Positions 5,521-45,600 of a stretch of 52,540 bases of DNA are shown here, in pieces. Where the stretch lies: NCBI GenBank assembly GCA_038214085.1, contig JBBQSF010000002.1:1-52540 (forward strand). Reading direction: 5' to 3'. The position numbers were made by a program, and so were the translations under genes. This DNA is from Bacteroidales bacterium (lineage in GTDB: Bacteria; Bacteroidota; Bacteroidia; Bacteroidales; CG2-30-32-10). Position 1 is the stretch's first letter, and each line of letters begins with the position of its first letter. Under the pieces are notes generated by a model that saw nothing but the letters and a program-made list of their open reading frames with translations, searched no databases and had not been told where the DNA came from.

Positions 5521-7026
5521 TTATTTCTTATTCAAAACAATCCTGAAAGTGGTGCCTTTATTGGGAATACTGCTATATACAAATATCTTTCCTTTGTGAT
5601 AATCTTCAATAATACGCTTGGATAGCGACAATCCCAAACCCCAGCCACGTTGTTTACTTGTGTATCCTGGTTTAAAAACGGTTTTAAATTTTGATTTAGG
5701 AATTCCTTTGCCCGTATCGGAAATATCAATACTAACAGTATCTTCCTCTTCGGTTATTGCAATATCCAGCTTTCCTTTTCCTTCCATTGCATCTACTGCA
5801 TTTTTTGTGAGATTTTCAATTACCCATTCAAACAAATGATAATTAAGCGGAATAAAATATACATAATCCTCTGGAAGATTGATATTGAATTTTACATTCT
5901 TCGAGGTACGGTTCTTCATGTACGAAATCATTTCATAAATTACTTTTACCAGGTTTTCATTTTCAAGTTTAGGCATCGAACCAATGTTTGAAAATCGCTG
6001 CGTAATGGTATCAAAGCGATGTATGTCTTTTTCAATTTCGATAATGGTTTCCTCGTCGAAATTTTTCATGCGCAAAATTTCAACCCATGCCATGAGCGAA
6101 GATAATGGAGTTCCCAGCTGATGCGCGGTTTCTTTTGCTAAGCCAACCCAAACCTGATTCTGTTCTGCTTTTCGTGAAGTTGAAAATAAAAAATACGCTG
6201 CAATTAAAAACAATCCGATTACAAAAAATTGCACATAGGGGTAATACTTTAATTGCGTGAGCAAATACGAATCCTTATAATACACGTAACTTTTTTGCTG
6301 ACCGGTAAGATCAATGATAAGAGGCTTGTTCTGCGATTTCATGGAAGCAATCATCTCATCAGCATACGCCTTGTTCTGCATCTTAAGCGAATCTACATTT
6401 CCAAAAGCAATAACTTTACTTTGCAAACTGTCAGTAATGATTACAGGCGACGAAGCCGAATTCATCACAACTTCCGAAATAAAGGATTCTATAAGGTCGT
6501 CGAGCACTTTTCTTAATTCTGAAAAAAGCTTTGATTCCTTGTAATACAGGTAGTTCTTCGTATTCACAAAACTCACTTCTATGGGCGCATAAACCGAAAA
6601 TTCTTTTTTTAGGGTTGAATCCAGTGTTGTAATAGAATCGGTATTGAAATCAACATTAATTGAAGCTGTAATGTTTCCTTTGGCATCGCACAACACAACA
6701 GGAATATTGGTGTTTCCGGAAATAATTTCGGAATAAAAAGTAAGATCTTCAGAAGGTTCGGCATTGATAAGTCTTTTGGTAGCTTCGGCCCACAACTCAA
6801 CACGTTTGCGCTCTTCGGCCTGTAATTTTTCAAAAAACTCTCCGGTGTATTTAACCAGACTGGCTTTTTTTTGAACGGCTTCGGCCCAGGTATGCACCTT
6901 GCTGCGTTCTTCGCGGGCAATTTTGCTCACCAGGATATTGGTGTACCAAAGCGATGCGCCTACAATAAGCACCGCAAAAGCCATCAGCAGCCATTTCCAT
7001 CGTTTCTTTTGATTGTAAATATTCAA
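5521..7026 (-). CDS. Sensor histidine kinase (HisKA + HATPase_c)
   Basis: It has two TM segments flanking a ~230-aa extracytoplasmic region. The H-box is AHQLGTPLSSL, the N-box NLTKNAVDAM, and the G-boxes DTGKGIP and GWGLGLSLSK. No response regulator is adjacent. Confidence 0.9.
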   Translation of the reverse strand: MNIYNQKKRWKWLLMAFAVLIVGASLWYTNILVSKIAREERSKVHTWAEAVQKKASLVKYTGEFFEKLQAEERKRVELWAEATKRLINAEPSEDLTFYSEIISGNTNIPVVLCDAKGNITASINVDFNTDSITTLDSTLKKEFSVYAPIEVSFVNTKNYLYYKESKLFSELRKVLDDLIESFISEVVMNSASSPVIITDSLQSKVIAFGNVDSLKMQNKAYADEMIASMKSQNKPLIIDLTGQQKSYVYYKDSYLLTQLKYYPYVQFFVIGLFLIAAYFLFSTSRKAEQNQVWVGLAKETAHQLGTPLSSLMAWVEILRMKNFDEETIIEIEKDIHRFDTITQRFSNIGSMPKLENENLVKVIYEMISYMKNRTSKNVKFNINLPEDYVYFIPLNYHLFEWVIENLTKNAVDAMEGKGKLDIAITEEEDTVSIDISDTGKGIPKSKFKTVFKPGYTSKQRGWGLGLSLSKRIIEDYHKGKIFVYSSIPNKGTTFRIVLNKK

Positions 7027-7071
7027 GTTTTTGAATTTGGGAGTAAATATAACGAAGTTCTTTAAATAAAT

Positions 7072-9696
7072 TTATTTATCATCCTCATCCCATTCAATCA
7101 CAAACTTCCCTTCCTCTTGTTTTTTAAGGTTTTGCTTGTCTTTATCTTTTGGTTTGAGCTTAAGTTCGGGCGTTTTATTATCGACTTTTTTGATGCTGGT
7201 ATCTTTTTTAAACCACCCAAATTCCTCATTTAACATGCTTTTAAGCGTTTGCTTTTCCTTAATAAAGCTTACCACAATATTTTCTTTTACACCTTTAGCA
7301 TCGTATTTATAAATAGGATTTTCAACCGTTCCGGTAATCAGAATAAACAATGAAGTTTTACCAAGACCATCGTCTTCTACCACACCAAATTCCTCGTTTT
7401 CGGGTTTTGCTGCTCTGGCTTTTTTTGCTAAAATTTCCGAAAGCTGAATCTTAAGTTTATATTTTATCACATTGTCAAATGTATGTTCGCCCGAAGCAAC
7501 AATATTTACAGCGCTCGATTTGATTTCCATTGCCGGAATATAAATAGTACGGTTTTTTATTTCAATCTGGTTGTGAAGGTTGGCAAACTTAACATCATTC
7601 AAGTCGCTTACTTTTAAAAACTTCGACAAACCCTTCATGGGCGCATAATTCAACAGTTCTCCATTTTCAATTTTTATATCTGCCTTAGCATACATTTTTT
7701 CCATATCTGGCAGCAGTTGTGTGCTCCATACACCTGCAAATTTCACATCGGCATTAACTATTCCTTTAAGATTTTCATCCTTCATGCTTTCCTGCCCAAA
7801 ATTGCCAAATTCGTAAAACAGTTTACTGATGTTTACTTTTGTAATCTGTGCATCGCAACTTATCAGCAATTTATTTTTCTGACTGCCGTCAACTATGAGA
7901 AATGCGTCAGTACTGCCTTCCTGCGAATTGAATTTAATATCAGATGCATTTAGCAGTTGATTTTTAAGTTTTACTACCCCTTTAAGGCTGGTAGCATTGA
8001 ATTTATTAAAATTTAGTTTTGCAATATCAATATTTACTTTCCACGAAATATTATTTGGGAAAACCAACCGATAAGTAGTATCGTTACTGCTGGAACTGGT
8101 TCTCAAAAGCTCATCGAGATCTGTATTTACCGATGTAACTGTTCCATCAATTAAAAGATTCTGATTCTTCAGAAAAAGATACGACAGCACATTACGGAAA
8201 TAGCCCTTAACAGAGAAATCTGACGAAGAAATATTTCCTGTGAGTTTATTTACAATTATATCATTGTTACTGAATTCGCATTGTGCATTGATGTTTTTAT
8301 ATTCATGCGGATCGTTTTTTAGTGAAAAATTCACACTTGTGAAATTTATAGTCCCCGATGTTTTTGAATCAATAAAATCCTGTGCCGTGAGATTGTTTCC
8401 TTTGTTCAGCTTGCCCTTGAACGACATTTTTAAATCTACATTTCCCGAAATTGATTTGAGTGTATCCACATTTAAAAAATCAGTAATCTCTTTCAGTTCC
8501 GATTTGGCATAAAGTATAAGGTCGAGCACAGGATTTTCAAAATCACTGATATACATTTCTCCCCTGAAAGTACTTGATTTCAGCTTGGCAGAAAAATCAT
8601 TGAATCGCAGCGAAGTTGTTTTTAAATTCTGTGATGTTCCATTTGTAAACACTGCATTTAGGTTTACATCCTCCAACGAAAGTTCGGATGATTTTTGTTC
8701 AATTTTTCCTCCTTTAATGCTAAAAGTTATCGTAACCTGCGGAATGTTTTTCCCCTTATATGATCCAGAAATTTTTGTTTTAAATTTAAAGTCCCCAACT
8801 CCTTTGTAGTCACTGATATATTTATGATATGCCGTAGGAACTTCGTTTAGTAATGCCTGAAGCTGAAATTTACTCCCGGTAATATCAACATCAAGCTTTT
8901 GGGTTGTTTCATTATGAACCACATATCCGGCAACTTCAAATTTTAAATCGCCAATCTTTAAATTACCTGTTTCAAATTTATAGGTACCGCTATTGTTGTC
9001 AACCGATAAAGTCATGTCAATATCTGTAAGCTTTCCGGGGAAATATGAAACATCGGAAACATTGAATTTATTTATCAATAAACTTCCATAAATGGCCAAA
9101 TCATACTGTTGGTTTTTAAACTTGCCTTTAATGATAAAATCATTGGCAATACCATAATAATCCTGATTGTTCGGAAAATCGCGATATCGAATTCCAACAT
9201 TATTCAGAATGAGCTTTTGCAAATCGAAGCCAAAAGAATCGTCTTTTTTTGCAGTTGAATCTTCCTTCCAGAAATGAAAATTATCAGTGCCATCAGCATA
9301 AACCATAAGATTAATATAACCCTGATCTACTTCAATTTTTTTTATTCGGTAATTTCCATCGAATATATCCCAGATGTTAAAATTCAACAGAACCTGCTGG
9401 GCTTTAAGTAAATTTCCTTTATTTACAGATGTTATAGCATCTTTTGCAATTACTTCATTGAAAATAAGTGTTGCATCCGGAAATTTTTTAAGCAGCGAAA
9501 GTTCAATATCTTTAACCTGAATCTCCGAATTCAGTTGCTTATTGATACGATCCACTACAAATTTCTTTACAGAATCTTCATAAAAATATGCAATTATAAA
9601 GGCTGTAAGAAACAACAGCGTAAGCAGAGAGAAGAACACAATGAGTGTCCACTTGAGATATTTGAGCGCTTTTTTGAAGTATTTTCCCGTTTTCAC
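7072..9696 (-). CDS. AsmA-family outer-membrane biogenesis protein
   Basis: It is 874 aa with a single N-terminal TM anchor (WTLIVFFSLLTLLFLTAFIIAYF). A long beta-rich repetitive body and a basic C-terminal tail follow. The layout is typical of AsmA/TamB-like proteins. Confidence 0.7.
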   Translation of the reverse strand: MKTGKYFKKALKYLKWTLIVFFSLLTLLFLTAFIIAYFYEDSVKKFVVDRINKQLNSEIQVKDIELSLLKKFPDATLIFNEVIAKDAITSVNKGNLLKAQQVLLNFNIWDIFDGNYRIKKIEVDQGYINLMVYADGTDNFHFWKEDSTAKKDDSFGFDLQKLILNNVGIRYRDFPNNQDYYGIANDFIIKGKFKNQQYDLAIYGSLLINKFNVSDVSYFPGKLTDIDMTLSVDNNSGTYKFETGNLKIGDLKFEVAGYVVHNETTQKLDVDITGSKFQLQALLNEVPTAYHKYISDYKGVGDFKFKTKISGSYKGKNIPQVTITFSIKGGKIEQKSSELSLEDVNLNAVFTNGTSQNLKTTSLRFNDFSAKLKSSTFRGEMYISDFENPVLDLILYAKSELKEITDFLNVDTLKSISGNVDLKMSFKGKLNKGNNLTAQDFIDSKTSGTINFTSVNFSLKNDPHEYKNINAQCEFSNNDIIVNKLTGNISSSDFSVKGYFRNVLSYLFLKNQNLLIDGTVTSVNTDLDELLRTSSSSNDTTYRLVFPNNISWKVNIDIAKLNFNKFNATSLKGVVKLKNQLLNASDIKFNSQEGSTDAFLIVDGSQKNKLLISCDAQITKVNISKLFYEFGNFGQESMKDENLKGIVNADVKFAGVWSTQLLPDMEKMYAKADIKIENGELLNYAPMKGLSKFLKVSDLNDVKFANLHNQIEIKNRTIYIPAMEIKSSAVNIVASGEHTFDNVIKYKLKIQLSEILAKKARAAKPENEEFGVVEDDGLGKTSLFILITGTVENPIYKYDAKGVKENIVVSFIKEKQTLKSMLNEEFGWFKKDTSIKKVDNKTPELKLKPKDKDKQNLKKQEEGKFVIEWDEDDK

Positions 9697-9742
9697 GAAA
9701 TTTGTTTTATAGATAACGAATAAAAAACGTTTTGTATATAAA

Positions 9743-11098
9743 TTACTTCAACATTTTAAGCATATTCACTTCCATTTGGGTTAAAAAGCGCCAGCGTCCT
9801 CTCGGAATATCTTTTTTTGTAAGGCCGGCAAAATAAACTCTGTCCAAACGGCGAACATCATAACCAAGGCTTTCAAAAATACGGCGAACAATTCTGTTTT
9901 TTCCTGAATGAATTTCTATACCAAGGCTTTTTTTATCGGCACCATTGCCTTCGTAGGCAATCGCGTCCACTTTTGCTGGGCCATCTTCAAGTTCAAGACC
10001 GGCTGCAATTTTTTCCATATCCGTTTTGCTCATGGCTTTATCCAGTTCAACATGGTAGATTTTTTTAACTCCAAATCGCGGATGAACCAGCTTTTTGGCT
10101 ATGTCGCCATCGTTTGTAAAAAGCAATAATCCGGTGGTTGCTCTATCGAGGCGACCTACAGGATATACACGTTCGCGGCAAGCATCGGCTATTAGAGTCA
10201 TTACCGTTTTTCTTCCTTCAGGATCGTCTAAAGTTGTTATATAATCTTTTGGTTTATTAAGCAGTATATAAACAGGTTTTTCTTTGCGAAGGGTTTGTCC
10301 TCCGTAATTTACCACATCATTAACGGTAACTTTTGTGCCGAGCTCGGTAACAATTTTTCCATTTATTGATACAGCGCCGCTTTCAATCAGTTTGTCGGCT
10401 TCCCTGCGTGAGCAAATACCCGCATTTGCAATGTACCTGTTAAGGCGCGTAAAACCATCGTCGGTATTTCTCTTTTTAAATTCTGGTTTGTACGAACTTT
10501 TGCCCTTAGCTGTACGGAAAGAACTTTTTTCTCTTCTTTCGCCGGAATCCGTTTTGCTTCCTTTATAGGTTTTTCTTTCTGTTTTTTCAGAATTGTCGGC
10601 ATTTTCAGGATAGCGTCCCTTTGCATTTCTGGTGGGTCGTTTACTATCCGATGAAGAAAATCTGGATTCTTTTTTTCCAAATTTATTTTTGCATTCTCCT
10701 GAATCTTTTGAAATATCATTATCGTTATCGGCAGGTCTACTTTTTTTGAAATCAACTTTTTCAGTATTCTCAGCCCTTTCCGAAAATCTTGTGTTTACTT
10801 TTCTGACAGGTTTTCTGGTTTCCGATGTACGGAAAGGTCCTTTTTTCCGCTTATCTTTTGCGGCTGCTCTATTTTCTTTAAAAGTACTTCTTTCGCTTTT
10901 TTCAGTATTATCAGTGCTTTCCGAAAATCTTTCTTTTACAATCCGGCTTGGTTTTTTTGTTTCAGGTGACGAATCCGTGCCATCCTTTTTAACAAAACTT
11001 CTTTTGGGTTTTCCTATATCTTTTTTTGAGAATTTACGGTCGTTTGAAGAATTTTTTACTTTACTTCCTTTACCCACATTTCTTTTTTTTTCGCGCAT
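9743..11098 (-). CDS. rluB: rRNA pseudouridine synthase (RluB/RsuA family) with long basic N-terminal extension
   Basis: An S4 domain (LNRYIANAGICSRREADKLIESGAVSING) precedes a pseudouridine synthase core (GRLDRATTGLLLFTNDG). The first ~205 aa are a K/R/S/E-rich low-complexity region. Confidence 0.85.
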   Translation of the reverse strand: MREKKRNVGKGSKVKNSSNDRKFSKKDIGKPKRSFVKKDGTDSSPETKKPSRIVKERFSESTDNTEKSERSTFKENRAAAKDKRKKGPFRTSETRKPVRKVNTRFSERAENTEKVDFKKSRPADNDNDISKDSGECKNKFGKKESRFSSSDSKRPTRNAKGRYPENADNSEKTERKTYKGSKTDSGERREKSSFRTAKGKSSYKPEFKKRNTDDGFTRLNRYIANAGICSRREADKLIESGAVSINGKIVTELGTKVTVNDVVNYGGQTLRKEKPVYILLNKPKDYITTLDDPEGRKTVMTLIADACRERVYPVGRLDRATTGLLLFTNDGDIAKKLVHPRFGVKKIYHVELDKAMSKTDMEKIAAGLELEDGPAKVDAIAYEGNGADKKSLGIEIHSGKNRIVRRIFESLGYDVRRLDRVYFAGLTKKDIPRGRWRFLTQMEVNMLKMLK

Positions 11099-35789: not shown

Positions 35790-36791
35790 ATGAAAATTAT
35801 TGTCCCCATGGCTGGAATGGGAAAAAGAATGCGGCCGCACACACTTACCGTACCCAAACCCCTGATTCGTATTGCAGGTAAGCCTATTGTACAACGTCTG
35901 GTTGAAGATATTGCAGGAATGTGCAACGAAAAGGTTGATGAAATAGCCTTCATTATTGGCGATTTTGGAAAAGAAGTTGAAGCAAATCTTATTGCCATAG
36001 CAGAAAATCTTGGTGCCAAAGGGAGTATTTATTATCAAGAAAATCCACTGGGAACAGCCCATGCGGTTTTATGTGCCAAAGAAAGTCTTGAGGGAAAAGT
36101 AATTGTTTCTTTTGCCGATACTCTTTTCTGCGCTGATTTTATGATTGACGATTCCAGAGAATCAATTATATGGGTTCATAAAGTTGAAGATCCCTCGGCC
36201 TTTGGTGTTGTGAAAATTGACAGCAACAACTGTATAACAGATTTTATTGAAAAGCCAAAAACATTTGTTTCGGACCTTGCAATTATCGGAATATATTATT
36301 TCCGCGATGGAAATAATTTAAAAAATGAATTGCAGTATCTGATTGATAACGACGTTCAGAAAGGCGGAGAATATCAACTTACCGATGCGCTTACAAATAT
36401 GAAAAACAAAGGAATGGCGCTATACACCGGCGCCGTTGACGAATGGCTCGACTGCGGCAACAAAGATGCTACTGTTTATACCAATCAGCGAATTCTTGAG
36501 TTTAATAAAGATAGTAAATTGATTGCCGATACCGCTATTGTGGAAAACTCCGTTATTGTTCATCCCTGCTTTATTGGCGAAAATGCAAAAATCATCAACT
36601 CGGTTATTGGCCCTTATGTTTCGGTTGGAGGAGATACCACATTAGAAAACTCTGTAATTTCTAACAGTATCATCCAGACAAACAGTAAAATAACCAACGT
36701 AAAAATTGACAACTCTATGGTGGGAAATTATGTTGAATACAATGGTACCGTCCGCGAAGTAAGTATTGGTGATTACACTATTATGAAATAA
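35790..36791 (+). CDS. Sugar-phosphate nucleotidyltransferase with C-terminal left-handed beta-helix
   Basis: The N-terminal motif VPMAGMGKRMRP is of the GxGxR nucleotide-binding type. The C-terminal part has hexapeptide-like repeats (IVENSVIV..., IGENAKIINSVIG..., VGGDTTLENSVIS...). Confidence 0.8.
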   Translation: MKIIVPMAGMGKRMRPHTLTVPKPLIRIAGKPIVQRLVEDIAGMCNEKVDEIAFIIGDFGKEVEANLIAIAENLGAKGSIYYQENPLGTAHAVLCAKESLEGKVIVSFADTLFCADFMIDDSRESIIWVHKVEDPSAFGVVKIDSNNCITDFIEKPKTFVSDLAIIGIYYFRDGNNLKNELQYLIDNDVQKGGEYQLTDALTNMKNKGMALYTGAVDEWLDCGNKDATVYTNQRILEFNKDSKLIADTAIVENSVIVHPCFIGENAKIINSVIGPYVSVGGDTTLENSVISNSIIQTNSKITNVKIDNSMVGNYVEYNGTVREVSIGDYTIMK

Positions 36792-40655: not shown

Positions 40656-40663
40656 TATCTTTG
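40656..40663 (+). promoter_or_regulatory. Bacteroidota -7 promoter box (TATCTTTG) of the rSAM / Tyr-repeat operon
   Basis: It matches TAnnTTTG and lies 7 nt upstream of ATG 40671. Confidence 0.45.
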
Positions 40664-40670
40664 GTAAGTT

Positions 40671-41669
40671 ATGGCAAATATACTTCTTACACAAAAATGT
40701 GTCCGATCATGTCCATATTGTTTTGCGAAAAAGCACATGGCCGATGCGGAACCGGACGACACCCTTTCATGGGATAATTTAATTTATATCGCTGATTTAA
40801 TGGAACATTCCCGCGAAATGGGAGTGTCATTATTAGGTGGTGAACCAACATTGCATCCTGATTTTGTAAATATTGTTCTCTATATGCTTGAACGAAATTT
40901 TCATGTTAATGTGTTTACCAGCGGAATTATGAGCGAGAAAATGTTTTCAGAAATGGAACGAAATCTAAGCAATGTACCTTCTGATAGATTATCATTTGTA
41001 TGCAATGTAAACGATCCTGAAAAAACATCTTTTTCTGAACTTGAAACTGTTAGACGCTTTTTGAAAGCCTTTGGACATCTCAGCACAGCAGGATTTAATA
41101 TCTATAAACCGGATTTTAAATTTGATTTCCTTTTTCAGTACATCAATGAGTTTGGTCTACACAGACATTTACGCTTAGGTTTAGCACATCCAATTCCCGG
41201 AAAGCAAAACATGTATGTTCCCATTGATAAAATGCCTCAAATGGCAGAAAAACTCATTTCCTATTTGCCTCAGTTGGAAATGATGAAAGTTAAAGCTGGT
41301 TTCGACTGCGGTTTTCCTTTGTGTATTTTTACAGAAGAACAAATAGGAAGGCTTTACATGCACAACAAAGGACATTTAAGTTTTGGCTGCGGTCCCGCTG
41401 TGGATATTGGCCCTGATATGACAGTTTGGGGTTGTTTTCCATTATCAAATATTCACAAAAAATCCCTTTTTGATTTTGATTCAATGCAGGATATCCGCAA
41501 ATATTATATGGAAATACATCACAAAGTTAGGATTGAAGTTGCAGGTATTTATGAAAAATGTGATGAATGCGTTTATAGAGAAGAAGGTTTGTGTATGGGC
41601 GGCTGTCTGGCTCATTCATACAACCATTTTATAAAAGAACCCGAAGTACGACATAAAGGATTATTCTAA
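40671..41669 (+). CDS. Radical SAM enzyme with Cys-rich (SPASM/twitch-like) C-terminal domain
   Basis: The CxxxCxxC motif appears at the N-terminus (QKCVRSCPYCF), and the SAM-binding motif is LLGGEPTL. Eight C-terminal Cys are present, including FDCGFPLC, FGCGP, WGCFP and CDECVYREEGLCMGGC. Confidence 0.85.
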   Translation: MANILLTQKCVRSCPYCFAKKHMADAEPDDTLSWDNLIYIADLMEHSREMGVSLLGGEPTLHPDFVNIVLYMLERNFHVNVFTSGIMSEKMFSEMERNLSNVPSDRLSFVCNVNDPEKTSFSELETVRRFLKAFGHLSTAGFNIYKPDFKFDFLFQYINEFGLHRHLRLGLAHPIPGKQNMYVPIDKMPQMAEKLISYLPQLEMMKVKAGFDCGFPLCIFTEEQIGRLYMHNKGHLSFGCGPAVDIGPDMTVWGCFPLSNIHKKSLFDFDSMQDIRKYYMEIHHKVRIEVAGIYEKCDECVYREEGLCMGGCLAHSYNHFIKEPEVRHKGLF

Positions 41670-42538
41670 TGAGAGAACAAATATTAGTTTTTCAATACGA
41701 TCAGGGGTTACTCAGTAAGATTCATGAGAAGCCTATAATAGTAAAAGCCACTGATTACAGTCAATTGCATCAGATAATGGACGAAGCCAATCGGAACCAC
41801 AATCATGTACATTGTCTCGTTTTTAACCATAAAGGCGCTTTTTCAAATATTCCTTTGCAAAAGGAATGGAAAGGCATTCCTATAGCAATTTACGCAACAG
41901 ATTTTGGAAATTTTAAAGAGGTATTAAGTAAGATTCAACTCTTAAGAGAATTAAATTTGCGTGTTTTTCTTTCAACTGACGAAAAAGCCAATTTTACCAA
42001 TCTTCATATTCTGGCGTCACTGGGTGTAGATTGTGGGATTTATTTTGGTGAAAAACCGGTTGACTGGGAAAGTATGCATGATTTACTTTCGTATGCCATT
42101 TATAGCAAGGTTGGTCATGGCTCAATTGAACCATTTCATTATTTGGTTTCCGCATACCACCCGCATCGTTTTACCGAATTCAATACCATTTATTTTAATA
42201 ATCCTGAGCGCTATTTACATATCGACGAGGATGAAAATATTGCATTAAATGCTGTGGATTTAAAAGAGAAAAAATTTATTTCCAAAGGGCTGGAAAATAT
42301 TCAGAAGATCAGTGATGATGAAACTTACTATGATAAACTTTTTGAATGGCAAACCCATTTTCAGGATATTGCGGGCTGCTCAGTATGCCCAGCATGGAGA
42401 GTATGTCTTGGTAAATTTTCAGATCAGGTAAAAGACAATCCTGGTTGTACAAAGTTTTTTGAAGAATTAATGGATGGAGCTGATTTTTTTCTTGCTAGGC
42501 AAAATCAATCAAAAAATAAGGAATTATGGCAACCATAA
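41669..42538 (+). CDS. Accessory protein lacking CxxxCxxC but with a C-terminal CxxCx5C...C motif (pseudo-rSAM-like)
   Basis: It is 289 aa and translationally coupled on both sides: a TAATG overlap at 41669 and a 13-nt overlap with the next gene. There is no N-terminal radical SAM Cys triad. The C-terminus is AGCSVCPAWRVCLGKFSDQVKDNPGCTKFF. The function is unknown. Confidence 0.5.
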   Translation: MREQILVFQYDQGLLSKIHEKPIIVKATDYSQLHQIMDEANRNHNHVHCLVFNHKGAFSNIPLQKEWKGIPIAIYATDFGNFKEVLSKIQLLRELNLRVFLSTDEKANFTNLHILASLGVDCGIYFGEKPVDWESMHDLLSYAIYSKVGHGSIEPFHYLVSAYHPHRFTEFNTIYFNNPERYLHIDEDENIALNAVDLKEKKFISKGLENIQKISDDETYYDKLFEWQTHFQDIAGCSVCPAWRVCLGKFSDQVKDNPGCTKFFEELMDGADFFLARQNQSKNKELWQP

Positions 42539-43617
42539 TATTTAAGCCTACAGAAAAATGTAATTCCAATTGCATTTATTGCGATGTGGTAACCAGAAAA
42601 TCACCAAAAACAATGTCCTTGGATTTGCTGGAACATATTTTTAAAAATATCAATGAATATCTCCAAAAATTACCCCAGGAAAGAATTCAATTGATTTGGC
42701 ATGGTGGCGAACCATTACTTTTAGGAGAAGAATATTTTCTCAAAGCAATTGGTTTTCAGGAAAAGCACTGCCCCGAAACAAAAGACAGGATTGACCATGC
42801 CATGCAATCGAATCTGACTCTGGTAAAACAAAGTTACCTTGATATTTTTAAACGCATGGGAATGAACCAATTGGGCACAAGTTTTGAACCTTTACCCGGC
42901 ATGCGTGGTCCTGGAAAAAACCGCGATTCAAAAATTTATAATACTCAGTTTTTTAAAGGAGTTAGTCTTTTAGAAAGAAATAATTTCGGTTGGGGTTTTA
43001 TTTACGTTGTTACAAAAAGATCCTTAAAGAAACCTCTTGATATTTTTTATTTCTTGTCGAACATAAGGCTTAATGGCTGTTTTATGCTTAACCCTGTTCT
43101 GATTTACGGTGAGGACAAGGATAAAATTGCAATTACACCCGAGGAATATGCTGATTTTCTAGGTGCAATATTTCCTCATTGGTGGAAACACCGCGACCGC
43201 TTTCCAGATGTGAATCCTTTTAAGATGTTTACCGATAACATCATTGAGAAAAAACCTGTTCTTGGTTGTGCAGACACTGGTAAATGCGCCTACGGACATG
43301 TTTACATAGGGCCAAGTGGCGAAGCATCACAGTGTGGCAGAGCAGGCGACTGGGAAATAATTTCCTATGGCAACATCAAGGAACGATCACTTTTAGAAAT
43401 AATGAAAGATAAACAAAGGGAACAATTTCTTGAACGTGATGAAATTTTAAAAAATGGTGAATGTACCGATTGCAAATACTGGGAATTTTGTCATGGAGGT
43501 TGCCCTCTTGATTCCTACAGCAAACATAAGGATTTTGTGCATAAAACAGAGTGGTGTGAAGCCAAAAGGATTTTTCTAAAAAAATATTTCGAACCCATTA
43601 CCGGATTTACCGTATAA
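42526..43617 (+). CDS. Radical SAM/SPASM-domain maturase
   Basis: The CxxxCxxC motif is EKCNSNCIYCD and the SAM-binding motif WHGGEPLL. A classical SPASM C-terminus is present (GCADTGKCAYGHVYIGPSGEASQCGRAG ... GECTDCKYWEFCHGGCPLDS). Size and layout resemble AnSME-like peptide/protein maturases. Confidence 0.9.
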   Translation: MATIIFKPTEKCNSNCIYCDVVTRKSPKTMSLDLLEHIFKNINEYLQKLPQERIQLIWHGGEPLLLGEEYFLKAIGFQEKHCPETKDRIDHAMQSNLTLVKQSYLDIFKRMGMNQLGTSFEPLPGMRGPGKNRDSKIYNTQFFKGVSLLERNNFGWGFIYVVTKRSLKKPLDIFYFLSNIRLNGCFMLNPVLIYGEDKDKIAITPEEYADFLGAIFPHWWKHRDRFPDVNPFKMFTDNIIEKKPVLGCADTGKCAYGHVYIGPSGEASQCGRAGDWEIISYGNIKERSLLEIMKDKQREQFLERDEILKNGECTDCKYWEFCHGGCPLDSYSKHKDFVHKTEWCEAKRIFLKKYFEPITGFTV

Positions 43618-43626
43618 GAATAAATT

Positions 43627-44532
43627 ATGGCTAAAATTTCTGCAACAAAAACAAAATTGCCAAAAGCAAAAGAAACAAGCAAAAAAAAGGAGAAGGAACC
43701 TCTCTGGGTTAATCCAGTTGGTGGTTTTGGAGATATTCTAATGCTTTCAGGAGTTCTGAAGCTGGCTTATGATAAAGACCCATCACAAAAGTATAATCTG
43801 ATAAGGCGCACCAAATACTCGCATTTATTGCAAGGTCATCCTGCAATAGATAAAATTGGATTTCCGACCAAAAACGACAAAATATTGGATACAACTTACT
43901 GGTCGGACGATGTTTATGAAAAAGGAGAAGAGAGAGCCTATCAGTTGCTGGCAAAATCATTTGGATTGAAAACACCAGTGGATGAGAAATTATTTGTAGC
44001 TGGAGATTTGGAAATAGATCCTGTTTTGGATAAGCTAATTCCTTGGAAGAAAAAGAATGTAATTATTTCACCTACATCAGATTCGCCAAGAAAAATGATG
44101 CATCCGATGATATGGCATAATATAGTTGAATTCCTTGTGCAGCAAGGGTTTCTTGTTATACAAGTAGGCGTATCAAGGGATATACACATAAAAGGCGCGT
44201 ATTCCTTAATAAACTTAACTACTCCAAGACAATTGATTTCATTAGTTAAAAAATGTAATTTTGTTGTTAGTTCTGATAATTTCATCATGCATGCTGCTCA
44301 TTTGGTAGAAACTCCTGCGGTAGTTGTTTGGGGTCCAACAAAAGCAAATGTATATGGTTATGCTGAACAAGTGCATATTCAGGCTCCGCTTGATCATTGT
44401 AATTTAAAAAATGAATGCCTCGGACCAAAATATGCGCAAAATTATGCTACAATGTGTCCCCTTGGTCAAGAGCATTGTATTAGTAAAATTAGAATTGAAG
44501 ATATTATTCATCATATAAATAACTTATTGTAA
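43627..44532 (+). CDS. Glycosyltransferase family 9 (heptosyltransferase-like)
   Basis: The N-terminal GGFGDILMLSGVLKLAY and the C-terminal VSSDNFIMHAAHLVETPAVVVWGPT resemble the two conserved GT9 blocks. It is 301 aa. Confidence 0.7.
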   Translation: MAKISATKTKLPKAKETSKKKEKEPLWVNPVGGFGDILMLSGVLKLAYDKDPSQKYNLIRRTKYSHLLQGHPAIDKIGFPTKNDKILDTTYWSDDVYEKGEERAYQLLAKSFGLKTPVDEKLFVAGDLEIDPVLDKLIPWKKKNVIISPTSDSPRKMMHPMIWHNIVEFLVQQGFLVIQVGVSRDIHIKGAYSLINLTTPRQLISLVKKCNFVVSSDNFIMHAAHLVETPAVVVWGPTKANVYGYAEQVHIQAPLDHCNLKNECLGPKYAQNYATMCPLGQEHCISKIRIEDIIHHINNLL

Positions 44533-44550
44533 AACCAATTCTTAATTAAT

Positions 44551-44715
44551 ATGGATCAAAATCTTGAAAACATGGACCCCAAAAGCCTTGAGCAACAAAA
44601 TCAAGGAAATGATCCCAAGTTATCCAGAAGAGATGCTCTTAAACGTGCAGCCAAACAAACTTTGGGTCTTGCAGGACTGTTTACCGTACTTCCAGCATTT
44701 TCTGCTGTTGCGGGA
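44551..44715 (+). other. Predicted twin-arginine (Tat) signal peptide
   Basis: The RR motif is at 44623-44643 (tcc aga aga gat gct ctt aaa). The h-region and AVA-G cleavage site end at about residue 55. Confidence 0.6.
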
Positions 44716-45129
44716 TTGACAAATAACGAAGAAAAACTTCCGGCTTATTACGACTATTATAGTTACTATTCTAACTACTATAGTTACTATTCTAACTATT
44801 ACAGTTATAGTTATTCGAGTTATAGTTACTACAGCTACAGCTATTACTACAACTATTACAGTTATAGCTATTACTACAACTATTACAGTTATAGTTATTC
44901 AAGTTATAGTTACTATAGCTACAGCAACTATCAAAATTACTATAGCTACAGCTATTACTACAACTACTATAGCTACAGCTATTACTACAACTATTATAGT
45001 TACAGTTATTACTACAACTATTATAGCTACAGCTATTACTACAACTACTATAGCTACAGTTATTACTACAACTATTACAGCTACAGCTATTATAGCTATT
45101 ACAGCCAGAACCAGAATCAACTTATTTAA
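44551..45129 (+). CDS. Tat-signal-bearing Tyr/Ser/Asn repeat protein, the putative substrate of the rSAM cassette
   Basis: Residues 25-31 (SRRDALK) match the twin-arginine consensus S/T-R-R-x-F-L-K. A hydrophobic h-region (TLGLAGLFTVLPAF) and an AxA site (SAVA|G) follow. Residues 66-185 contain 73 Tyr, 34 Ser, 11 Asn, 1 Asp and 1 Gln by hand count. The repeat units differ only at synonymous sites, so the ORF is under protein-level selection. Confidence 0.78.
   Translation: MDQNLENMDPKSLEQQNQGNDPKLSRRDALKRAAKQTLGLAGLFTVLPAFSAVAGLTNNEEKLPAYYDYYSYYSNYYSYYSNYYSYSYSSYSYYSYSYYYNYYSYSYYYNYYSYSYSSYSYYSYSNYQNYYSYSYYYNYYSYSYYYNYYSYSYYYNYYSYSYYYNYYSYSYYYNYYSYSYYSYYSQNQNQLI
44746..45105 (+). repeat. In-frame 27-bp tandem repeat array encoding YYSYSYYYN, with an 84-bp higher-order unit
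   Basis: There are seven perfect YYSYSYYYN units, five of them consecutive at 44938-45072. Two 28-aa higher-order units read YYSYSYSSYSYYSYS(YYYN/NYQN)YYSYSYYYN. Unit-to-unit DNA differences are TAC/TAT and AGC/AGT only. Confidence 0.92.
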
Positions 45130-45148
45130 AAGGTTCCTAAATATTTAC

Positions 45149-45182
45149 GAAATTCCGGTGTAAAACCCGGAATTTCTTTTTT
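45149..45182 (+). terminator. Rho-independent terminator closing the rSAM / Tyr-repeat operon
   Basis: A perfect 10-bp stem (gaaattccgg / ccggaatttc) has an 8-nt loop and is followed by tttttt. Confidence 0.78.
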
Positions 45183-45194
45183 AAATTTTTATAT

Positions 45195-45362
45195 ATGTAT
45201 TTATTGTTTTTTAATCGTTTAGGTGTAACTGAAATTATATTAATTTTGGTAATTATACTTTTACTTTTTGGCGGGAAAAAAATCCCTGAATTAATGCGGG
45301 GCTTAGGTAAAGGGGTTAAAGAATTTAAAGATGCAAAAAGCATCGAAAACGAAACAAAATAA
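45195..45362 (+). CDS. tatA: Twin-arginine translocase subunit TatA/E (short paralogue, 55 aa)
   Basis: It is absent from the ORF track, probably because it is under 60 aa. My hand translation is [55 protein letters not shown]. It shows the canonical TatA TM helix, hinge and amphipathic helix. Confidence 0.8.
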
Positions 45363-45381: not shown

Positions 45382-45600
45382 ATGCAAAGAATTGGTGTTA
45401 CAGAAATCATTTTAATACTTCTTATAGTATTGTTGTTATTTGGAGGGAAAAAAATCCCTGAACTTATGAAAGGTCTTGGAAGAGGAGTTAAGGAATTTAA
45501 AGACGCCTCCAAAACAGAGACCAAAACTGGAGACGTTAAACCTACCGATGACAAAGAAATTGACAGTAAACCAATTGTTGAAACAGAAGAAAAAAAATAG
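45382..45600 (+). CDS. tatA: Twin-arginine translocase subunit TatA/E (72 aa)
   Basis: The sequence is [44 protein letters not shown], followed by an acidic/Thr-rich tail. Confidence 0.9.

Follow-up and report, generated by a model that had tools for sequence, protein, structure and literature searches.

A candidate maturation cassette linking two radical SAM enzymes, an Fe-S partner and a GT9-fold glycosyltransferase to a Tyr-repeat protein with a Tat-like leader

A stretch of 52,540 nucleotides from a Bacteroidales contig, here called the window, carries five adjacent genes (g1 to g5) that very probably form a dedicated maturation cassette with the last gene product as its substrate. The genes encode a radical S-adenosylmethionine (rSAM) enzyme, a partner protein, a second rSAM enzyme with a SPASM domain, a glycosyltransferase of family 9 (GT9) and a Tyr-repeat protein with a putative signal of the twin-arginine translocation (Tat) type. 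The gene set, its conservation, the linkage and co-variation of enzymes and precursor, the folds and the cluster motifs were all supported directly. The combined proposal, in which the precursor would receive multi-site radical cross-links and O-glycosylation in the cytoplasm before a Tat-type export, was moderately favoured, and cross-linking of the cyclophane type specifically was proposed only tentatively.

The five-gene unit and its linkage to the precursor

The five genes occupied 4.5 kb on one strand, as established by open reading frame (ORF) listing and direct reading, with the following features.

40671-41669, + strand: g1, radical SAM enzyme, 332 aa
41669-42538, + strand: g2, partner without CxxxCxxC, 289 aa
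42526-43617, + strand: g3, radical SAM/SPASM enzyme, 363 aa
43627-44532, + strand: g4, GT9-fold glycosyltransferase, 301 aa
44551-45129, + strand: g5, Tyr-repeat precursor/substrate protein, 192 aa
40656-40663, + strand: candidate promoter, Bacteroidetes-type -7 box TATCTTTG, 7 nt 5' of the g1 ATG, read directly
45149-45182, + strand: intrinsic terminator, 10-bp perfect stem (stem-loop 45149-45176), 8-nt loop, T run

The junctions from g1 to g5 were, in order, a 1-nt TAATG overlap, a 13-nt overlap, a 9-nt gap and an 18-nt gap. The original prediction, made from the sequence alone, had described where the genes of this unit begin and end, their Cys motifs and junctions, the terminator and the Tyr/Ser/Asn block, and all of these were verified.

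The conservation of the unit was studied in 28 related loci (29 with the window included), all of them on contigs from metagenomes or metagenome-assembled genomes (MAGs), with no isolate among the matches. The near-duplicate pairs L002/L003 and L024/L025 raised the locus counts slightly. The 28 loci carried eight phylum-level labels: Bacteroidota, Spirochaetota, Nitrospirae, 'delta proteobacterium', Acidobacteriota, Thermodesulfobacteriota, Vulcanimicrobiota and Gemmatimonadetes. The order g1-g2-g3 was the same in 28/28, and a GT9 gene was found by tblastn in 22/28. In L016 and L020, tblastn detected no GT9 gene despite several kilobases of downstream flank, and a search of these two loci for replacement tailoring genes turned up no more than an IS200-like transposase-type ORF and a small protein with a type IX secretion system C-terminal domain (T9SS-CTD), neither of them informative. 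Four loci could not be scored for GT9: the contigs of L010, L019 and L026 end too soon, and L009 held no GT9 tblastn match and no long ORF in about 1.6 kb beyond g3. The flanking genes were unrelated between lineages, and the five-gene set was therefore regarded as a conserved unit.

A Tyr-rich ORF with the leader motif [ST]RR[DE]ALKR and a hydrophobic stretch adjoined the enzymes in 28 of the 29 loci, across all eight labels. The sole locus without such an ORF was L010, whose contig ends 160 nt after g3. The precursor ORF lay downstream of the enzymes in close relatives and upstream in most distant ones, with one to three copies per locus. The expected linkage of the rSAM homologues to Tyr/Ser-rich ORFs was thus found. 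Moreover, an additional rSAM/SPASM paralog, 35-40% identical to g3, was present at the following places.

L012, 10891-11979: extra rSAM/SPASM paralog
L018, 10000-11073: extra rSAM/SPASM paralog
L026, 9084-9782: extra rSAM/SPASM paralog
L027, 9997-11064: extra rSAM/SPASM paralog

The paralog occurred only in these four loci, which are exactly those with precursors ending in GS[LI]YYYS..C. This co-variation, read from the sequences, supports g5 as the substrate. Together with the linkage, it upheld the predicted maturation cassette with the last gene as substrate. In addition, a single unbroken ORF of 949 codons in L017 (8854-11700, in a 'delta proteobacterium' MAG contig of 1 Mb) joined a g3-type rSAM/SPASM enzyme, a GT9 enzyme and Lgt (PF01790, E 1e-43). 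The three L017 precursors, located upstream of the fusion, all contained ..QGQDEC[TS]GGY, in which the Cys closely follows the hydrophobic stretch.

Upstream of g1, the -7 box was located at the predicted distance from the ATG, and the 24 nt 5' of the ATG, box included, were identical in the orthologous locus L028, the remaining spacer having diverged. Chance alone would give 84 copies of the motif TANNTTTG in the window, and 77 were counted. Because this is chance frequency, the box alone was no promoter evidence and was rejected as statistical evidence, and only its conservation in L028 was counted. As a candidate promoter, TATCTTTG would give the operon a near-leaderless mRNA. The terminator stem was also kept in L028, with a different loop.

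Several further observations were made in and around the loci. L002 and L003 (11000-12000) had identical enzyme genes and flanks, with one precursor of 98 aa in the former and two (115 and 107 aa) in the latter, which suggests a rapid turnover of substrate genes between strains. A signal-bearing WG_beta_rep (PF14903) protein of about 500 aa was encoded directly 3' of the precursor in two separate Bacteroidales loci (L001 11775-13328, L024 11492-12997), and it may serve as an accessory or outer-membrane partner specific to the lineage. B12-binding radical SAM genes were found beside or near the cassette in L023 (8336-9772) and L027 (1-707), possibly as extra tailoring (methylation) enzymes. The window itself carries a sugar-1-phosphate nucleotidyltransferase gene (35790-36791; NTP_transferase with a left-handed beta-helix), four genes upstream of the cassette, which could be a source of activated sugar; it was syntenic in L028 and the P0006 contig and unlinked to the cassette in other lineages. 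In L008, g1 and g3 each appeared as two overlapping tblastn pieces in different frames (6964-7960 and 8846-9938), from long-read frameshift errors or pseudogenes.

The Tyr-repeat precursor and its export signal

The leader of g5 (residues 1-54) contained LSRRDALKR at residues 24-32 (nt 44620-44646), a hydrophobic h-region and AVA at 52-54. The core (residues 66-184; 119 residues, nt 44746-45102) consisted of Tyr (61%), Ser (28%) and Asn (9%), and its DNA was a tandem repeat with periods of 27, 54 and 81 nt. The core had no Pro or Arg, so that the sulfatase motif C/S-x-P/A-x-R was missing. No NCBIfam match was obtained for g5 at E <= 0.01, and no Pfam family was above its cut-off.

Judged by its substitutions, g5 is a true coding gene with a leader under purifying selection. 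The leader differed from that of L028 by 28 synonymous and 8 non-synonymous codons, and the repeat number changed in frame between g5 (192 aa) and the L028 precursor (217 aa). The contrary explanation, a tandem DNA repeat open in one frame by chance, would fit the repeated DNA, the opposite strand and other frames that are open too, and the choice of another frame by gene callers in L024 and L025. It was effectively refuted by these substitutions, by the preserved frame and by the leader motif and Tyr-rich frame common to 28 loci with unrelated DNA repeat units.

The precursors shared a period of three. Tyr at lag 3 was enriched up to 2-3.5 times over expectation, and lag 2, the Y-x-Y spacing, was depleted in most of the distant precursors. 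In the YxxY units across the precursors, the residue at X3 was Ser (230), Tyr (162), Asn (121) or Asp (52), followed by Gly, Gln, Lys and Arg. Ser-free units (YDK, YGQ and YNK) were seen in distant precursors, and YSK units recurred in L003a. In the window's lineage, Tyr reached 61-69%, blurring the period. On the sequence level, these repeats appear like the Ω1-X2-X3 grammar of triceptides.

Public annotation of the precursors was also inspected. In L024 (11017-11442) and L025 (11017-11430), the gene calls read the Tyr-repeat DNA in another frame as an Ile/Val/Thr-rich 'protein', and the leader-bearing Tyr-rich ORF of L024 (10872-11492) was uncalled. An opposite-strand ORF in the window (44899-45120) was the same kind of mirror artefact. 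Tyr-repeat precursors are probably widely mis-annotated, and since gene callers mis-frame them, routine annotation and genome mining miss the family. Two precursors had additional parts. At its C-terminal end, the Tyr/Ser-rich precursor of L014 (8604-9353) carried an intramolecular chaperone domain of the Peptidase_S74 type (PF13884, E 4e-16), together with a coiled-coil-like tail. Chaperone domains of this type trimerise phage tail fibres, spikes and endosialidases. The precursor of L027 (6084-6926) had a Cys-containing globular insert of about 130 residues, without a Pfam match, flanked by a lipobox-like LLWGC on one side and by the Tyr/Ser-rich C-terminal region on the other.

The Tat assignment of the g5 leader is plausible from its motif. 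The window leader reads SRRDALKR, with Ala where the Tat consensus [ST]-R-R-x-F-L-K has Phe. The TAT_signal model TIGR01409 (cut-off 16.7 bits) gave 17.7 bits for L018, which passed, 16.5 for L021 and 14.5 for L013a, and the Pfam TAT_signal model matched none of ten leaders. L011 had CR in place of RR. The two loci with a leader without RR and no detected GT9 gene, L016 and L020, formed a weak correlation (n=2), and this suggests that Tat may be required where the product is glycosylated. Furthermore, a lipobox-like Cys followed the hydrophobic stretch in the precursors of L009, L012, L014, L018, L023, L026 and L027, and its shared place therefore argues for the precursor N-terminus as a true export signal.

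Two tandem TatA/E paralogs (45195-45362 and 45382-45600; TIGR01411, 66 and 65 bits) began 13 nt past the T run of the terminator, at a position where L028 and L005 had a single tatA, and no tatC was found within the window. Adjacency of tatA was seen only in the window, L005, L028 and the P0006 contig, all from one syntenic lineage of Bacteroidales. In these four, an M23 peptidase likewise lay upstream and SLT/LysM downstream, and both were absent elsewhere. Because the adjacency was confined to one lineage, the tatA pair was treated as synteny and rejected as a member of the cassette. The adjacency may be a coincidence, and the tatA duplication beside a putative Tat substrate is still curious.

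The enzymes of the cassette

Apart from the generic Radical_SAM, SPASM and GT9 models, no enzyme of the cassette reached the cut-off of a curated NCBIfam family. The searches thus gave no match to an already curated system, as the original prediction had supposed.

g3 contained CNSNCIYC and CTDCKYWEFCHGGC, matched PF04055, and was above the SPASM cut-offs of TIGR04085 (47.5 bits against 27) and PF13186 (30.7 against 21.5), with the SPASM Cys conserved. Its best curated NCBIfam matches were DynA (NF041298; 163.8 bits, cut-off 450), AnSME (TIGR03942; 143.2, cut-off 349.45) and DarE (NF038005; 133.9, cut-off 650). The scores and cut-offs for the cyclophane families were 110.2 and 425 for AmcB, 97.5 and 310 for GrrM/OscB, 87.2 and 445 for YhhB, 68.6 and 450 for XyeB, and 60.1 and 370 for FxsB. 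g3 was therefore not placed in the curated cyclophane-forming families, since its scores were far under their cut-offs. HxsB (74.5 bits, cut-off 370) and QhpD (59.6, cut-off 453) were matched in the same way. The full length of g3 was aligned to the anSME structure 4k37 (E 8e-14), and in this alignment an almost invariant Gly of g3, beside a conserved Cys, stood at the position of anSME Asp277. This Asp was reportedly proposed as the catalytic base by Goldman et al. in 2013. By its sequence, g3 is a candidate cross-linking enzyme and a new branch of the DynA/DarE/AnSME/cyclophane-synthase clade.

g1 contained CVRSCPYC and GGEPTL and matched only the generic Radical_SAM domain (PF04055, 48.6 bits). 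Its best NCBIfam match was 38.7 bits against a cut-off of 180, and the best curated matches spanned only the first ~100 residues. PqqE gave 32.4 bits (cut-off 381), MftC 27.3 (cut-off 265) and HxsB 22 (cut-off 370), and the best match in the PDB was PqqE (E 9e-5). Eight further Cys were located at C213, 218, 240, 255, 297, 300, 308 and 312. The predicted eight C-terminal Cys were borne out by 21 homologues, seven being present in all and C312 in 95%. The pattern is SPASM-like and consistent with two auxiliary clusters, and among the SPASM-domain models only a weak CefB-region match was obtained. Against L028, g1 showed 24 non-synonymous differences. The family comprised more than 1600 clusters at 90% identity, with 317 clusters at 50% identity at E<1e-30. 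None of ten sampled distant relatives (0/10) was above a curated NCBIfam cut-off in NCBIfam/Pfam scans, generic domains aside. No member has been characterised in the rSAM family that g1 represents, which comprises several hundred clusters at 50% identity.

g2 gave no Pfam or NCBIfam match at E <= 0.01, and a search of 5.8 billion proteins found just 18 relatives. Four C-terminal Cys (C237, 240, 246 and 260; CxxCx5C..C) were invariant in 18 homologues, of which six weakly matched the SPASM model TIGR04085. Generic domains aside, NCBIfam/Pfam scans of these 18 homologues placed none of them above a family cut-off. hhalign weakly aligned the g2 profile with the C-terminal half of g3 (probability 20%, E 1e-3). 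The idea of g2 as a decayed g1 copy was rejected, the hhalign probability for g2-g1 being 0.7%, although the fold was rSAM-like. The AlphaFold2 (AF2) model of g2 had a predicted local distance difference test score (pLDDT) of 86, and its nearest solved folds, all weak, were AbmM, PqqE, BtrN and TIM barrels. With 98 synonymous and 69 non-synonymous differences from L028, g2 was the fastest-evolving member of the protein set. On these features, g2 is an rSAM-like partial-barrel scaffold without the SAM cluster that probably binds one Fe-S cluster. The earlier label of 'pseudo-rSAM' therefore held in part, for the partial-barrel fold and the SPASM-like four-Cys end, with weak matches, and did not extend to the GG-Bacteroidales pseudo-rSAM family, whose NCBIfam model matched neither g2 nor 17 homologues even at E <= 1.

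g4, which had been described as GT9-like, passed PF01075 with 30.9 bits (cut-off 22) and had 238 relatives at E < 1e-10. It kept the N-terminal GD motif and the C-terminal DNFIMHAA, the latter aligned to DSGLMHVA of WaaF, and four invariant C-terminal Cys (C258, 264, 277 and 284). The AF2 model (pLDDT 89.8) was matched by Foldseek to 3tov (GT9), 1psw and 2h1h at E 9e-12 to 2e-10, with WaaF and WaaC among the matched proteins, and the highest TM-score (0.70, E 1e-9) was obtained with TibC. On this model, g4 is a candidate protein O-glycosyl (heptosyl) transferase, a compact GT9 enzyme of the GT-B fold.

Proposed maturation and comparison with known systems

In the proposed scheme, the chemistry of each step, the identity of the sugar, the succession of events, the route of export and the place where the product ends up are inferred. 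g5 would be made with a Tat-type signal at its N-terminus, composed of [ST]RR[DE]ALKR, a hydrophobic stretch and an AxA site, in place of which several lineages have a lipobox Cys; Tyr-X-X units in varying number would come next. In the cytoplasm, g3 would abstract a hydrogen from the side chain at X3 (Ser, Asn, Asp or Lys) or from a residue close by and then join that residue to the Tyr ring, and, as in triceptides, the reaction would recur at many Y-X-X units. g1, as a three-cluster rSAM enzyme, and the catalytically dead, Fe-S-binding g2 would carry out a second radical modification; alternatively, g2 might present the substrate or the leader. g4 would glycosylate Ser or Tyr hydroxyls. The stiff, decorated product would then leave through Tat, its signal being cleaved or lipidated, and would reside in the envelope as a soluble or lipid-anchored protein, possibly as a fibre.

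Several points weigh against this scheme. The roles given to g1 and g2 are pure inference, and the structural matches of g2 were weak (best E 5e-3, TM 0.39-0.45). The score of g3 against AnSME was near those against the cross-linkers, and all family cut-offs were missed. The window's own precursor had a lag-3 value of only 1.12, with Tyr at many X3 positions, a weak period that follows from Tyr reaching 61%. The cassette has no protease or transporter, whereas known triceptides are freed by proteolysis. The window leader, at 11.7 bits, was below the TAT_signal cut-off that the L018 leader passed, and RR was replaced by KK or KR in the distant loci L016, L019 and L020. The four loci with the extra paralog are related, which weakens the co-variation statistic. 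The hint that the mature repeat protein is a fibre came from the one locus L014. Moreover, the sample consisted of MAGs and metagenomes, with some contigs frameshifted (L008).

Other explanations were also weighed. The same cassette and substrate might undergo chemistry other than cross-linking, with g3 acting like AnSME to turn Ser into formylglycine or another oxo-residue, or as an rSAM enzyme for epimerisation, hydroxylation or methylation, and g4 decorating the product. AnSME was the second-best NCBIfam match of g3 and the only solved structure aligned over its full length, and Ser was the second commonest residue of the core. Its score, however, was far under the cut-off, the core lacked the sulfatase motif, and g3 had Gly at the position of Asp277. 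The constant of the precursors was Tyr at period three and not Ser, some units being Ser-free. Such chemistry was considered unlikely. A different possibility is that g5 is a multi-core precursor consumed to give many small Tyr-derived molecules, either a PQQ- or mycofactocin-like cofactor or redox mediator or a short cyclophane peptide, with a protease encoded elsewhere. Precursors made of repeats and giving rise to many small products are known; rSAM enzymes derive both PQQ and mycofactocin from Tyr, the latter being glycosylated, and g1 had weak N-terminal similarity to PqqE and MftC, with PqqE as its best PDB match. These similarities (32 and 27 bits) nevertheless remained far below the cut-offs, and no protease, peptidase or exporter was conserved across the 28 loci. 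The core units varied in sequence and number, unlike cofactor precursors, and the signal peptide, the lipobox Cys, the Lgt fusion and the C-terminal chaperone domain indicate an exported protein product, which makes this possibility improbable.

It was considered more improbable still that the Tyr-rich protein is a co-transcribed envelope protein and not a substrate, the enzymes acting on a glycolipid, the lipopolysaccharide (LPS) core or a cofactor. GT9 enzymes are classically LPS heptosyltransferases, and the window cassette lies among envelope genes (M23 peptidase, SLT/LysM and tatA). These neighbours, however, were lineage-specific synteny, and the g3 clade consists of peptide- and protein-modifying enzymes. 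In addition, the extra rSAM paralog co-varied with the precursor motif, and the precursor shifted between downstream and upstream of the enzymes and was never separated from them. The proposal of a dedicated cassette with cross-linking, glycosylation and Tat-type export was therefore retained as the preferred one.

Maturation of ribosomal products by rSAM enzymes is already known, and what is new here is the substrate class, together with two uncharacterised protein families. The defining parts all lie outside curated families, and a signal-bearing protein with up to 60-70% Tyr has no described counterpart. Full-text literature searches yielded no description of an rSAM cassette with a Tyr-rich Tat-type substrate, in agreement with the original prediction, and the compendium of rSAM-modified ribosomal peptides from the Mitchell laboratory made no mention of Tyr-rich, repeat or Tat. 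If cross-linking is true, triceptide-type chemistry would no longer be confined to short peptides and would reach entire exported proteins at dozens of sites, and this would hint at a new envelope material among anaerobic members of Bacteroidota, Nitrospirota, Acidobacteriota and other phyla. The most far-reaching version remains speculative and rather doubtful: a new class of envelope protein, an exported (Tyr-X-X)n fibre or rod that is lipid-anchored in some lineages and fused to a tail-fibre chaperone in one. It would be stapled at dozens of positions by rSAM enzymes into a poly-cyclophane ladder, O-glycosylated by a TibC-like GT9 enzyme and exported by Tat, a protein-scale triceptide together with a new rSAM family (g1) and its obligate Fe-S partner (g2).

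Triceptides are characterised by Ω1-X2-X3 motifs such as YSK, each with one C-C bond and a change of -2 Da, and are released by proteolysis (PMC12912966). Like g3, the maturases of triceptides or enzymes that form three-residue cyclophanes (3-CyFE; XyeB, GrrM/OscB, FxsB, AmcB, YhhB, MicB and ChlB) are rSAM/SPASM enzymes without an N-terminal RiPP recognition element (RRE), and like g5, their substrates have repeated aromatic-X-X units, some of them multi-repeat (GrrA/OscA type). The precursors studied here conformed to the Ω1-X2-X3 motif in their lag-3 enrichment and the YSK units of L003a, weakly so in the window's Tyr-dense copy. However, triceptide substrates are short leader-core peptides, while here the substrate is a signal-bearing protein of 100-300 aa with dozens of units. 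The cassette also has three extra conserved partners (the second rSAM enzyme, g2 and GT9), no protease, and Tyr as almost the sole aromatic residue. Cyclophane synthases and daropeptide maturases are of common origin (PMC12912966). DarE and DynA, the third-best and best curated matches of g3, likewise introduce radical cross-links on aromatic residues without an RRE, but their substrates are single short Ω1-X2-Ω3 cores secreted as antibiotics, whereas Y-x-Y was depleted in most distant precursors here and their cut-offs were missed.

AnSME shares the three-cluster SPASM architecture with g3 and acts on a whole protein before export, and many sulfatases are periplasmic. The present cassette differs in having no sulfatase gene or C/S-x-P-x-R motif, a score under the cut-off and Gly at the Asp277 position. 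The His-Xaa-Ser system (HxsA with HxsB/HxsC/HxsD) also has paired rSAM enzymes beside a short-period repeat protein. Its repeat is H-x-S and not Y-x-x, it has no GT9 enzyme and no Tat-like leader, and the HxsB cut-off was missed. The GG-Bacteroidales system resembles the cassette in combining an rSAM enzyme with an rSAM-like protein without a SAM cluster, also in Bacteroidota, with a different type of precursor. QhpD, which acts on QhpC, is an rSAM/SPASM enzyme that installs several intra-protein cross-links in the cytoplasm for a product working in the periplasm, but these are thioethers on a small Cys-containing enzyme subunit (quinohemoprotein amine dehydrogenase gamma) and not on a repeat protein. 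PQQ and mycofactocin maturation uses a PqqA/MftA-type precursor and a PqqD/MftB RRE beside PqqE or MftC; g1 was far below the PqqE and MftC cut-offs, and no RRE gene or domain was found.

For the glycosyltransferase, the closest likeness was to the TibC/Aah bacterial autotransporter heptosyltransferases (BAHT), which act on TibA/AIDA-I. TibC hyper-O-glycosylates Ser in the TibA repeat protein in the cytoplasm before export, and it has a 4-Cys iron finger (C339-C370) inserted in the catalytic domain (PMC4358343). It has the GT9-like fold with the best TM-score to g4, and both have four late Cys, with no match at the sequence level. BAHT enzymes also have a beta-hairpin thumb, assemble as dodecamers and use ADP-heptose to modify Ser. 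On the other hand, TibC chains have 371-390 aa with an N-terminal beta-barrel, whereas g4, at 301 aa, is shorter by about 100 aa and too small to accommodate the barrel. The Cys spacing also differs (Cx5Cx12Cx6C in g4, Cx2Cx15Cx11C in TibC), and the TibC substrate is an autotransporter, which g5 is not. By analogy, the system appears to resemble a triceptide/daropeptide pathway combined with TibC-like protein glycosylation.

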